From Cyanidioschyzon merolae (lineage: Eukaryota), in NCBI GenBank assembly GCA_000091205.1, contig AP006486.2: a DNA stretch of 64,000 bases; one strand, written 5' to 3'. Made by a program: the position numbers and the translations under genes. Every line of letters begins with the position of its first letter. The first letter of the stretch is position 1. Below the pieces are notes generated by a model that saw only the letters and a program-made list of their open reading frames with translations, was not told where the DNA came from and ran no database searches. Of this stretch, positions 2,436 to 60,551 are shown piece by piece.

Positions 2436-2783
2436 TCAGACGCCCTCAGCCGTTTTCGACAGGCCCACTTTCATCGGCTTCAGCTTCGTCCTGCACACTT
2501 CGAGCTTGAGGGGCTGCCCCATGGAGCTGGATCGCGTCAGATCCTCGAGTCTCTTCTCCGGCACCGCACATCTCCTGATATTGATGGCAGCACTCAAGTC
2601 TCGATTCCCGAACTCTATAGGCTCATTGCCACTAATGGAACGCATCACTTCACGGATTCCTAAGCTTCTTGCTCTCAGTGCCAACCGATGCTCCGTGAGC
2701 GCCCCGTGCTTTTCTATCGCCGAAGCGCTCCGCGGCCTGCTCGCCATCACGACCTTCTGAAGTTTAAACCCAAGCTCATCCAC
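2436..2783 (-). pseudogene. TnpB/Fanzor-like C-terminal fragment with a RuvC-III-like motif 'NRDLSAAINIRRCAV'
   Basis: The 'D-x-(N/S)-A-A-I-N-I' motif is characteristic of RuvC-III in TnpB, Fanzor and Cas12. The same core recurs at 9.9k, 40.8k, 44.8k and 60.4k. No N-terminal RuvC-I/II is found in the same frame. Confidence 0.5.
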
Positions 2784-3478
2784 TGGATTTTCATTTCTTG
2801 AAATGAACGCACTTCTTCTTGCACTTAGGTGGGACCTTCCCGATGATAAAGAAGAACTTACGGAAGAAAGACGGGATGCATATCAGCGTTACCGTGTACT
2901 GAACATTTCAGCAATGCGCCCAGTGGAGCGATCATTACGTTTCTCGACGGGAAGCACTCCATGGATGGGGTCGAACCACGGAGAGTACGGAGGAGTGAAA
3001 ACCACTTCTACCCCGACAGAATTAGCAAAAGCTGGAACGCGACGTGAATGATGAAGTGCAACTTTATGCAATAGAGGGGTATTATCAGACGTGGGGAGAA
3101 GGCTTCAATAGTTGGACATACTGAATGCTGTTGTATGAACCCTCTCTACGAGCGAAACCAACGGCGCCAAACGAATCCTCTTGAACTAGAACAGATGAAG
3201 ATGTCCTCGTTCCCTACCAGCTCGATCGTACATACAGCGGGCTTGCTCTGAGCCAATACGCATATTCGTGCCGACTGTTTCATCTGAAGCAAGTCACATC
3301 GACCGAAAAAACATACCGACATCTCTGTTCTTCACAACCATGGCGACTTTCGAGGAACTCTGTAGTTGTGATGTTGGTGGAAGATGGCTGTGCATGAAAT
3401 TTGACTGCTTTTTTTGCGAATGTATCCCAGTGTATTCAGTAGCATACGAACAAGCTGTTGGGAAACAGAGACGCCCGT
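2500..3478 (-). mobile_element. Inverted-repeat arm A: ~1 kb copy of the TnpB/Fanzor-like repeat family, about 99% identical to arm B (9187-10170) in opposite orientation
   Basis: ORF pairs are near-identical between arms: 2436..2783(-) vs 9882..10418(+), 2380..2760(+) vs 9905..10279(-), 3268..3480(+) vs 9176..9397(-), 2889..3071(-) vs 9594..9776(+). Nucleotide identity breaks at 3478/9187 (inner ends) and near 2500/10170 (outer ends). Confidence 0.85.
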
Positions 3479-4854
3479 AACTGCTATTATCTTCTCCTTT
3501 GTTTTGCGTGAGATGATCGAGGAGTCCTTTTTGTACCATTCACCGCAAGTGGGTCGTGATAATGTCGGGTTTTGGCACCTTGCGCGTATACGTGTTTCTT
3601 TCAGTGTTCCTGAATTATCAGAGGAATGTGGCATGACTGACCTGAAGGAGTTTGTCATCCGCTTGCACTGTTCTGTAAAGACTATATCCTACAGGCAATT
3701 ATTCTACAATTTATAAGGTGCACTGCATCATGATTTCGATCTCTTGCTAAAGACTGCACCGGCTGTGGAACGAAACTGAGTTGTAAGACTATAATGGATG
3801 GTGAATGGTGGATCCTGAGGTCATGGTGCAGAATGATGAACACCCTCACGGACGCGAATAGTATTCGCGCTCAATCGAAGATAACTCTGTTCGTGTACAC
3901 GATCCGTCAATCATCATAAAGAAACTATCCGGTTGCTACATCCTATGGACCATTGAACAATAGCAGTGACACTTACCATCGAATCGGTGCATTTTTACCG
4001 AAAAGAACAAAAACTAACCTCTTACTAGCAACTCTACAGCAGCTTCTTTCTTCTCTACGCTGAGCGATAGAAGGGGGAGGAGTTTTCCGTAGTTTCCGAC
4101 GTTTACGTTCTGGGCGGAAGGTCCGGCGGGCCGGACAAGTCTGCAACGCAAGAACGTCATGCTCCTCCCTGTGGCGGGTGCTGCGGTTCGACCTTTAGCA
4201 GCTTGTCCGCAGCCCAGTTTATTCGGGCACTGGGCGTGGCCCTGGTCCCGGTGATCCCCTAGCTATCGCTTCGCATTGCCGCATGCAGTAGGTCTGTCTG
4301 CGCAGTTTGCAGGCTTCCGGAAGGATGATGTTATCCGATCCCGTGTCGGATGAACCACGCCTCGAGTCGACATGCCGATTGGTATGGCAACGCGGATCTG
4401 TCTCCGCGCTTCATCCGCACCAGCGGTATAGACGCTTTTGCGGGTGCTTACAACAGGCTCGGGGCACGGTAGAATATACGAAACGATCAGTATATCCGAG
4501 AGCAAATATGGGTAATGGAACTGGGACGTGTTGCGCAGCATGATGAACGCTTTCTCGATTACCAACGTCGATCACGCAATCTGGGATCCATGTACAACGT
4601 AAACGCTTCGTCGAAGAAAAAACATATAGAACTGAGCAGCGCGCTGGACCCGCCGCAGTTCGCAGCGACCCAGGTCACCAGATCCATACACTTGCCACAG
4701 GCAATAGCGTTCTGCACGCAATGAGCGCCTCACAGAAAAGGGTCACTTTAGTCGACAATTTTGAGGAGCTCTTTTTCGTTCGCGGAAGGAACGCCAAGGC
4801 GTAGAGAGGGCCGTTAGTCACCTGTGGGAAGCTATTTGTGGCTGTGTATTCTAG

Positions 4855-59800: not shown

Positions 59801-60003
59801 CACAGTCCAGCGTCCTGCTCAGGACAGCGCAGGGCGGCACAGACGAGCCGCTCCTGTGGGAACTGCCAACTGGATGGCGCTCTACCTGGACCATTTTCTG
59901 TCCACAAAAAAGTCTCTTTCTCTTCGACGAGTCGAAACGTCTCCTCGTCGTCGATAGAAGCAGGCAACTGCGCAGGAGACGTCGCCGCTGCTCCCGTGGG
60001 CAT
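53836..60003 (-). CDS. ABCC/MRP-type full ABC transporter (TMD-NBD-TMD-NBD), 2055 aa
   Basis: NBD1 has Walker A '[18 protein letters not shown]', signature '[16 protein letters not shown]' and Walker B '[12 protein letters not shown]'. NBD2 has '[16 protein letters not shown]', '[32 protein letters not shown]' and '[10 protein letters not shown]'. Multiple hydrophobic TM blocks are present. There are long low-complexity inserts between NBD1 and TMD2 and inside NBD2. Confidence 0.95.
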   Translation of the reverse strand: [2055 protein letters not shown]

Positions 60004-60149
60004 CTTCCGGCGCTGATGGTGTCGTGTTCCCAGTAAGCAAGGTGAAAGGCAATGCAGTTCAGAGTTGAAACTTTTTCTCTACAATTCCGTCAGTGCAAAG
60101 CGAATGCTGTCCAGTGTTCAGCCTTGATGTTAGATATCCACACGCGTGA

Positions 60150-60551
60150 CGCCTAGTCCTGATGGAGAGTCCACAGACAGTCAGAGCAGCGAACAATGTT
60201 TGCGATTTGCGAGGGTTCATGAGTACCCATGCCCAGACGCCTCCTAGTCATTTTTGACCGGTCGCCTGTTATCGGTTCCTGTGCTTATCCAGGTACGCTT
60301 CGGGCTTGAGAGGCTGTACCATAATGTTAGGTCGTCTTCAGCACCACACATCGTCTAATGTTGATAGCAGCGTTGAAGACTCGGTGGACAAAGTCCGTGC
60401 GTTTATTGCCGCGGCTTGGACTCATCCATTTAAGGATTGTTAGAACTCGTTCCTTCAGTGCGACTACAGTCTCGTCATCGTGCTGTCGGACAGGCGCCAA
60501 TTCCCGTGTATCTCCCCTTTTCTTGGTCCTCTTCGCGCGATGGTAGGCCAC
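60150..60551 (-). mobile_element. TnpB/Fanzor-like element fragment (RuvC-III and tail) directly upstream of, and co-oriented with, the ABCC gene
   Basis: ORF 60327..60551(-) ends with 'TDFVHRVFNAAINIRRCVVLKTT'. Downstream on the minus strand, 'MTRRRLGMG' resembles the 'GGRSKKLGRVC / SGRRLHDS' tails of the other copies. Confidence 0.5.

Follow-up and report, generated by a model that had tools for sequence, protein, structure and literature searches.

What are the dispersed repeats with a shared nuclease-like motif in a 64-kb stretch of chromosome 4 of the red alga Cyanidioschyzon merolae 10D (hereafter the window), and are they still active? The stretch itself was identified by its host open reading frames (ORFs), 7 of 7 of which are identical over their full length to the C. 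merolae 10D proteins BAM79190-BAM79201; the locus tag CYME_CMD131C places it on chromosome 4. The initial annotation presented six loci as a family of eukaryotic TnpB homologues of the Fanzor type, and suggested that this family was recently active and lineage-specific. Our analysis shows that these loci are almost certainly decayed insertions of the CMe-1 (CMe-1A) Fanzor1 family, accompanied by non-autonomous derivatives that lack most of the ORF. Rather than being a new discovery, the repeats belong to a family that was described as CMe-1/CMe-1A by Bao & Jurka in 2013 (Mobile DNA 4:12; PMC3627910).

We analysed the window by a six-frame motif search, by DNA repeat families and by tblastn with CMe-1 and its relatives. 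The six-frame search recovered the motif (D/A/V)FNAAINIRR at five of the six loci. It reads NRDLSAAINIRRCAV at 2577-2591 on the minus strand and identically at 10074-10088 on the plus strand, N*DFNAAINIRRCAV at 40858-40884 (+), YRAFNAAINTRRYAV at 44803-44814 (+) and HRVFNAAINIRRCVV at 60351-60377 (-). At the sixth locus (~37760-38002, +) the literal motif has been lost by decay, and the locus was recovered as DNA repeat family D3 and by tblastn. The tblastn searches with CMe-1 and its relatives gave E values of 1e-7 to 0 at all six loci, and the resemblance is therefore not due to chance. Hence, the six loci with a shared motif and C-terminal tail all exist as proposed. The coordinates given for them hold for the coding remnants, but pairwise and consensus alignments gave larger elements, extending over 2432-3790 (-; copy c2), 8871-10238 (+; c3), 36800-38015 (+; c5), 40601-41110 (+; c6), 41996/42458-45052 (+; c7) and 60224-60700 (-; c8). 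Furthermore, tblastn with the family proteins revealed two extra, much more divergent fragments at 58-1135 (+; c1) and 31180-32202 (-; c4).

The published 3169-bp CMe-1A consensus (PMC3627910 supplement) was aligned to the window. Positions 42458-45046 correspond to consensus 662-3169 with 85-88% identity, and positions 40601-41104 to consensus 2665-3168 with 86.5% identity. At 37560-37662 plus 37777-38015, and again at 60700-60560 plus 60424-60332, a segment equivalent to consensus ~832-969 is joined to one equivalent to ~2840-3085; judging from these alignments, both loci are internal-deletion derivatives. Positions 2779-2549 and 9886-10116 match consensus 2737-2970 with 73% identity. Overall, identity to the consensus was 85-88% for the CMe-1A-type copies and 66-76% for the derivative loci, while amino-acid identity in tblastn with CMe-1 reached 85%. 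The published CMe-1 protein of 734 amino acids (aa) has the C-terminal end ...NRDFNAAINIRRCAVLEKRPPELTRENFVGQPLKVELYEKKLEAVVGGRSKKTGRRLHVSWRRFV, which is the very motif and tail noticed in the window (PMC3627910 supplement).

According to Bao & Jurka, CMe-1A is present in ~150 copies in C. merolae, each ~80% identical to a consensus of ~3 kb, without terminal inverted repeats (TIRs) and with target-site duplications (TSDs) not defined; its first 635 bp are 95% identical to a separate element, TE-N2_CMe (PMC3627910). They list a single Fanzor family for C. merolae and state that some of the CMe-1 copies are intact (PMC3627910). An intact CMe-1 element measures ~3 kb, has neither TIRs nor a transposase gene, and encodes one 734-aa protein in an intronless ORF. 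The protein comprises an N-terminal basic stretch that resembles a nuclear localization signal, the WED motif TDG and a split RuvC domain. This domain consists of DPG (RuvC-I), a Gly at the canonical RuvC-II site, an alternative Glu ~33 residues downstream (VDEFRTS) and NRDFNAAINI (RuvC-III). The C. merolae genome measures ~16.5 Mb. Set against ~150 copies in a genome of this size, the eight fragments in 64 kb represent an above-average density, as far as the window data alone can tell.

Is the encoded protein a Fanzor1? With the long copy, corrected for its frame changes, as the query, a homology search yielded 168 proteins, nearly all of them unannotated gene calls from the Joint Genome Institute (JGI) and some tagged PF26935 (DUF8286). 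An exhaustive profile search returned 2513 cluster representatives (50% identity) at E<=1e-3, of which 356 at E<=1e-30, mostly 600-700 aa long. The description as lineage-specific is thus apt for the CMe-1 subfamily only, and does not extend to this wider clade. A family profile, made from an alignment of 50 diverse relatives, was searched against the PDB, and matched the solved Fanzor1 proteins of Parasitella parasitica (9cf0, E=3.2e-23), Spizellomyces punctatus (8gkh, E=2.2e-19) and Guillardia theta (9cer, E=6.7e-12). DPG, DEFRT and NRD coincide with their counterpart motifs in all three alignments, and NRDxNAAxNI of the profile is aligned to the NRD of the Spizellomyces and Parasitella proteins.

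The 50 relatives share seven invariant columns (P318, F376, D383, D421, G423, G559 and E592), and five further columns are at least 90% conserved (T382, G384, P422, R658 and D659). The RuvC-I Asp is present in DPG (GADPGNTN in CMe-1, DADPGNT in c7), the WED motif TDG corresponds to T382/D383/G384, and the RuvC-III RD motif (NRDxNAAxNI) to R658/D659. The RuvC-II Glu is replaced by G559 (VAYGAG), and an alternative E592 (VDEFRT) is located 33 residues away; both positions are invariant. DPG, TDG and the alternative Glu are hallmarks of the Fanzor clade (PMC10711439), and a rearranged RuvC-II glutamate has been described for Fanzors (PMC10530073). Because the conserved columns match these hallmarks (PMC10530073, PMC10711439), the motif that marks the window loci is the RuvC-III motif of a Fanzor1. 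The family also behaves as a multi-copy eukaryotic transposable element, with eight fragments in the window and 507 or more matching stretches on contigs from metagenomes. The identification as Fanzor-type TnpB homologues, and of the motif as RuvC-III, was correct, given the significant profile matches with three solved Fanzor1 structures.

These matches also decide against the alternative that the shared motif comes from a family of host genes, or from a low-complexity domain, with no relation to RuvC or TnpB. Such an explanation would accord with the fact that single sequences gave no Pfam or NCBIfam match, and that part of the protein is labelled only DUF8286 by Pfam. It is refuted by the profile matches to the three solved Fanzor1 proteins, in which the catalytic motifs are aligned. 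Moreover, PF07282 (the TnpB/Cas12f TNB zinc-ribbon domain) was matched by 11 of the 50 relatives, the repeats show sequence identity with the published Fanzor1 CMe-1, and the copies are pseudogenes in intergenic DNA. We consider this alternative extremely improbable.

Several results nevertheless weigh against the reading of the repeats as relics of a Fanzor1 nuclease family. Searches with single sequences and with seven sequences (the reconstructed window protein and seven homologues) gave no match in Pfam, NCBIfam or the PDB, and likewise phmmer and a 7-sequence profile gave no match in the PDB. Only the 50-sequence profile reaches the solved Fanzor1 proteins, and hence a deep profile is needed to detect the homology. 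A C4 zinc finger between [TS][TS] and RD is part of the Fanzor/TnpB motif of 2013 (PMC3627910). This C4 zinc ribbon is absent from CMe-1, which lacks any CxxC pair in the segment from DEFRTS to NRD, and two CxxC pairs are kept in just 2 of the 50 relatives. Since the zinc ribbon is degenerate, even an intact CMe-1 would be only a putative nuclease. An AlphaFold2 model from a 7-sequence alignment was unusable (mean predicted local distance difference test score 40.6, predicted template modelling score 0.27) and gave no structural confirmation. The degenerate zinc ribbon is a feature of the clade and no ground for exclusion, because the founders of the family list CMe-1 itself as a Fanzor1.

The relatives provided some additional observations. 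PF26935 (DUF8286) is the sole Pfam tag on the family (P0001-P0120; L001 9323-9976), and our local Pfam scan did not reproduce it. The tag falls on the part from WED/TDG to RuvC-I, and DUF8286 therefore appears to be a piece of Fanzor1. Among the closest intact relatives, at ~40% identity, is P0107 (699 aa, starting with MPPKKQKRQ...; contigs L002-L005). Its gene is located directly downstream of a DDE_3/Tc3-HTH transposase gene of the Tc1/mariner type on small metagenomic contigs, with a run of an 18-bp tandem repeat between the two genes, and the locus looks like a live Mariner-type Fanzor1 element. In the metagenomic gene call P0114, a C-terminal remnant of CMe-1 is fused to S-adenosylmethionine (SAM)-methyltransferase domains (PF13847, PF13649, PF08241); rather than a real fusion, this is probably a gene call that runs on into an adjacent host gene.

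All copies in the window are non-functional, being pseudogenes, truncated, internally deleted or catalytically mutated. The longest, c7 (41996-45052, +), is a near-full-length dead CMe-1 copy according to the consensus alignment and its homology to other copies. An alternative 5' module of ~460 bp (41996-42457), marked by homology to six other independent copies that begins at 41996, is followed by the CMe-1A core described above (42458-45046). The ORF remnants (42710-44987) lie in three frames and contain RuvC-I DADPGNT (44071-44091), VAYGAG (44485-44502), the alternative Glu in VDELRTS (44587-44607) and RuvC-III as YRAFNAA (44794-44814), with Asp changed to Ala. The WED motif reads VETDGVA, compared with IETDGVA in CMe-1. 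Five in-frame stops and at least three frame changes (frames 2/3/1/3) interrupt the coding sequence, a 75-bp tandem duplication occupies 43928-44077, and the copy ends in a 3'-terminal hairpin (~45025-45048). An ORF of 316 aa (44251-45201) is a remnant of c7 that reads into flanking DNA.

Two parts of c7 recur with variation in other elements. The tandem duplication belongs to a 75-80-bp repeat within the Fanzor ORF (consensus 2117-2196) that encodes an acidic unit of ~25 aa just upstream of RuvC-I. This unit occurs in 1 to 5 copies among independent elements (loci L010-L085), like a minisatellite inside a gene. The ~460-bp 5' module is common to L019, L022, L028, L029, L042 and L085. The same core start (~consensus 648) follows at least three alternative 5' modules, and thus the 5' side of the family is modular.

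The next copy, c6 (40601-41110, +), is a 5'-truncated 3' fragment of CMe-1A. It codes for aa 589-730, a C-terminal remnant of 142 aa, with a stop directly before RD (N*DFNAAINIRR), and carries a terminal hairpin at ~41087-41104. Its 3' end lies ~31-37 bp upstream of the ATG (41141) of a Macro-domain gene. The short internal-deletion derivative c8 (minus strand) is equivalent to consensus ~832-969 plus ~2872-2967, has two stops, and its RuvC-III Asp is changed to Val. The remaining copies are C-terminal remnants of 82-128 aa. Across the window, five copies (c1, c2, c3, c5 and c6) retain the RuvC-III Asp, and in its place c7 has Ala and c8 has Val.

The two fragments found by tblastn alone are of a different kind. 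Copy c1 is the C-terminal half (aa ~329-700) of a divergent Fanzor1 pseudogene, which shares 25-31% identity with CMe-1 and 36-41% with P0104/P0109, its intact relatives. Seven stops interrupt the copy, its RuvC-I Asp is changed to Gly, and its 5' part would fall beyond the window start. Copy c4 is a divergent N-terminal-half fragment that covers aa ~35-351/379 of P0107/P0109 with 27-30% identity. With 25-31% identity to CMe-1 and 27-41% to the metagenomic proteins P0104/P0107/P0109, these fragments form a second Fanzor1 lineage in the window.

The three other copies reveal a non-autonomous element. On the basis of consensus and pairwise alignments and tblastn, c5 is a CMe-1-derived element of ~1.3 kb, in which an unrelated 5' region of ~700 bp is followed by a stretch like consensus 873-969 and a 3' coding end like consensus 2840-3085. 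Repeat family I1 and pairwise alignment identified c3 as the same element (~1.35 kb, +) and c2 as another copy of it, inverted relative to c3. Pairwise comparison thus showed c2, c3 and c5 to be three copies of one ~1.35-kb non-autonomous element. In c3, an ORF of 178 aa (9882-10418) is a Fanzor C-terminal remnant (aa 612-721, 50% identity, RD kept) that runs on into flanking DNA. The sequences of c2 and c3 are 96% identical over 1046 nt in repeat family I1 and 91% over 1263 nt in pairwise alignment.

This high identity could also mean that c2 and c3 are the two arms of a local inverted segmental duplication rather than two transpositions. They are only ~5.1-5.7 kb apart and inverted, and at 91-96% they resemble each other far more than either resembles any other copy. 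However, the limits of their similarity coincide with the limits of their similarity to the independent c5 (5' AGTCTTxCAACTC; 3' end just after GGCGTCTG), and a segmental duplication would normally bring flanking DNA along. We therefore regard duplication as unlikely. The similarity is confined to the element itself, which points to a later round of transposition by the non-autonomous derivative.

Two further sequences in the window are related to the 5' part of the CMe-1A consensus. A solo TE-N2_CMe-like element at 4002-4612 (-) matches consensus 5-636 with 75.5% identity, and a partial TE-N2_CMe-like fragment at 48577-48802 (+) matches consensus 30-255 with 68% identity. The TE-N2_CMe-like element has a hairpin near its 5' end (GCTTTC-GG-GAAAGC) that resembles the 3'-terminal hairpin of CMe-1.

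Is the family still moving? Over 12-21 kb, contigs from several JGI metagenome samples run colinear with the window at 98.5-99.2% identity, and insertion sharing was sampled over window positions 28282-55151. Here, c4, c5, c6 and c7 were present and colinear in the ~99% identical metagenomic strains. We found no presence/absence polymorphism among the sampled strains over this interval, and a search for empty sites found none, as all strains carried the same insertions. Within 79 metagenomic loci with a CMe-1 3' end, only 1-3 kept an ORF of at least 599 aa, and one metagenomic copy has an ORF of 722-752 aa with all motifs.

The initial annotation suggested that the family was recently active, and in this reading it would still have a functional nuclease and an omegaRNA, with the local density resulting from recent bursts. 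The metagenomic copy with a long ORF and the intact copies stated by Bao & Jurka (PMC3627910) are in line with it, as is the 91-96% identity of c2 and c3 over exactly the element extent set by the third copy; this non-autonomous pair is the exception to the picture of old age. In contrast, the window copies are 66-88% identical to the consensus and every one is disabled, at least 76 of the 79 metagenomic copies lack a long ORF, and the sampled insertions are common to the other strains. Divergence of 12-34% from the consensus, universal decay and fixation thus argue against recent activity, which we consider quite improbable. The CMe-1 family is old and not recently active, and its copies in the window are inert relics.

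Where do CMe-1 elements end, and what lies at this end? We stacked 45 independent CMe-1 3' ends. The element ends a few bases past the published consensus, at ...GGCGTT(TGTT), with termini of the form ...GAAAGGCGTT / ...GAACGGCGTT. The last ~25-30 nt fold as a hairpin that occurs in two variants, ACGTTTTTC-TTTT-GAAAGGCGT (variant A) and CGTCGTTCGA-CTT-TCGAACGGCG (variant B), which are different folding registers of homologous positions. Per-sequence folds and a gap-free sub-alignment were used, because MAFFT misaligns this indel-rich region. The hairpin has at least seven paired bases in 42 of the 45 copies. Its minimum free energy averages -9.97 kcal/mol, compared with -2.69 when an internal coding segment is folded as a control, and the mean z relative to shuffles is -2.2. 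G-U pairs make the sense strand fold more stably than the antisense strand in 42 of the 45 copies (-9.97 versus -5.73). In variant B (21 copies), the 14-bp helix is 84.7% paired compared with 36-52% in slid registers.

A double-stranded terminal stem has been described for Fanzor1 guide RNAs (PMC10711439). The 3' hairpin of CMe-1 may be the terminal stem of a guide-RNA scaffold, or a recognition site of the enzyme that mobilises the element, or both; it fits the two equally. For the omegaRNA that the initial annotation raised as a possibility, this conserved, sense-biased hairpin is indirect support. Other RNA results count against a conserved structured guide RNA. Covariation in the terminal helix is modest (0.180 versus 0.146, a value reached by 6 of 500 shuffles), RNAalifold on the 45 independent 335-nt 3' ends gave -4.6 kcal/mol with no covarying pair and no consensus structure, and a scan of the complete window against Rfam at gathering thresholds gave 0 matches. 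A second candidate, 'hairpin 1' (GCCGCCA...TGGCGGC) around a conserved ACTACTGTACAC loop, was rejected, as it is broken in many copies and competes with another small stem. In L047 (638-900), the terminal ~60 nt with the loop motif and the terminal hairpin are tandemly duplicated, resulting in two successive 3' ends.

In view of these termini, CMe-1 might be mobilised in trans by a single-strand enzyme of the HUH type, either Helitron2-like or IS200/IS605-like. Such an enzyme would account for hairpins at both ends, the lack of TIRs and TSDs (none are reported in PMC3627910), and the many 3' fragments and internal deletions. The 3'-terminal hairpin exists in two structurally equivalent variants, most copies have a GC-rich hairpin at the 5' start of the core (GCGCTC-GGT-GAGCGC or GCGCG-N7-CGCGC), and the Fanzor1 elements of Chlamydomonas are Helitron2-borne, with 3'-biased and internally deleted copies. 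However, the 5' core hairpin is no better than shuffles (mean z -0.8), and no asymmetric terminal inverted repeat (ATIR) was recognisable by inspection. Neither the window nor the loci showed a RepHel or Y1 gene, RepHel not having been searched genome-wide, and the closest intact relatives adjoin a Tc1/mariner-type DDE_3 transposase instead. Mobilisation by an HUH enzyme is therefore a tentative possibility, with rather less than even chances.

As for the protein, a live CMe-1 copy most likely encodes an RNA-guided double-stranded DNA endonuclease, by homology to the characterised Fanzor1 and TnpB enzymes. We infer that it would bind RNA transcribed from the 3' end of the element, be programmed by it and cleave matching DNA. 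Cutting of sites without the element would then favour retention or spread of CMe-1. Taken one step further, the sense-only hairpin would be the terminal stem of a Fanzor1 guide RNA at the exact element boundary, and the short derivatives, which keep the last ~250-350 nt of the ORF, would be stand-alone guide-RNA modules of a natural, zinc-ribbon-less Fanzor1 system mobilised by an HUH-type enzyme. This combined scenario is speculative and on balance unlikely. If true, it would provide a natural Fanzor1 system in a recombination-proficient, genetically tractable alga.

The relics lie among plainly eukaryotic genes, as had been noted before. Pfam confirmed the neighbours as a FAE1/KCS gene (15744-17555), a DHHC gene (21872-22981), a photolyase/cryptochrome gene (25318-26778; the cry-DASH gene of the initial annotation), a RecQ gene (33997-36600) and a FANCJ-like gene with DEAD_2 and Helicase_C_2 (45144-48464). 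The 3' ends of four copies face the starts of co-oriented host genes from 31-270 bp upstream: 38015 precedes a DnaJ gene at 38284, 41110 the Macro-domain gene at 41141, 45052 the FANCJ-like gene at 45144, and 60224 an ABCC gene at 60003. The 316-aa ORF that leaves c7 overlaps the start of the FANCJ-like ORF. Fragments located upstream of host genes may contribute to promoters or 5' untranslated regions, in cases too few for statistics. An orientation bias, with all 3' fragments pointing toward a downstream co-oriented gene, was considered and dropped, since only three tandem contexts are informative and the bias is not significant. Elsewhere in the window, a 43-bp unit (AGGATCATACATGCGTGTCCAGCTTTCTGCGTACAAATCTAGA) is repeated ~5 times in tandem at 52560-52774, in the intergenic DNA that separates CMD131C from the gene for the ABCC transporter.

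The value of these results lies mainly in calibration: a Fanzor/TnpB RuvC-III signature was correctly recognised, without tools, in raw eukaryotic DNA, for a family known since 2013 from the literature and from Repbase-style consensus sets. CMe-1 is now placed in a large Fanzor1 clade, comprising more than 2500 clusters (50% identity), in which the zinc-ribbon cysteines have been lost and which is partly labelled DUF8286. Furthermore, population metagenomes define the 3' terminus of the element and a conserved, strand-specific terminal hairpin there. C. merolae is a possible tractable host for in vivo tests of Fanzor1, if an intact copy or the consensus were revived.

How, finally, do the window elements compare with known systems? 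They differ from CMe-1 as described by Bao & Jurka (2013) in three respects. In the long copy, another 5' module of ~460 bp takes the place of the first ~650 bp of CMe-1A, which are TE-N2_CMe-like; most of the ORF is missing from four loci, which are non-autonomous derivatives; and the fragments at 58-1135 and 31180-32202 belong to a far more divergent Fanzor1 lineage that is absent from the 2013 list for C. merolae. With the solved Fanzor1 proteins (8GKH, 9CF0, 9CER), CMe-1 shares profile homology over the WED, RuvC and TNB region, the DPG, TDG, alternative Glu and NRD motifs, and an N-terminal basic stretch. Unlike these proteins, it lacks the zinc-ribbon cysteines (THHELGC...GLLALVSTT instead of CxxC...CxxC), has a variable acidic 25-aa tandem repeat just before RuvC-I, and has no known TIR or TA TSD.

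Bacterial TnpB elements of the IS200/IS605 and IS607 families (e.g. ISDra2) resemble CMe-1 in having a RuvC nuclease at the 3' side of the transposon, a guide-RNA scaffold (putative in CMe-1) that overlaps the 3' end of the ORF and the right end, no TIRs or TSDs and, in IS200/605, hairpins at the ends. In contrast, the host of CMe-1 is eukaryotic, its protein is much larger, its RuvC-II glutamate is rearranged and it has no TnpA. The Helitron2-borne elements CRe-1/2/3 of Chlamydomonas reinhardtii are likewise transposase-less, encode Fanzor1 only, end in a 3'-terminal hairpin, have a conserved 3' non-coding RNA region (putative in CMe-1), and occur in many copies that are internally deleted or truncated at the 5' end and retain an intact 3' end. 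They differ from CMe-1 in that the latter has no recognised ATIR or Helitron-like termini, no identified RepHel partner and an intronless ORF. With its hairpinned ends and lack of TIRs, CMe-1 is more like these Helitron2-borne elements of Chlamydomonas than like its own relatives that adjoin a DDE_3 transposase.

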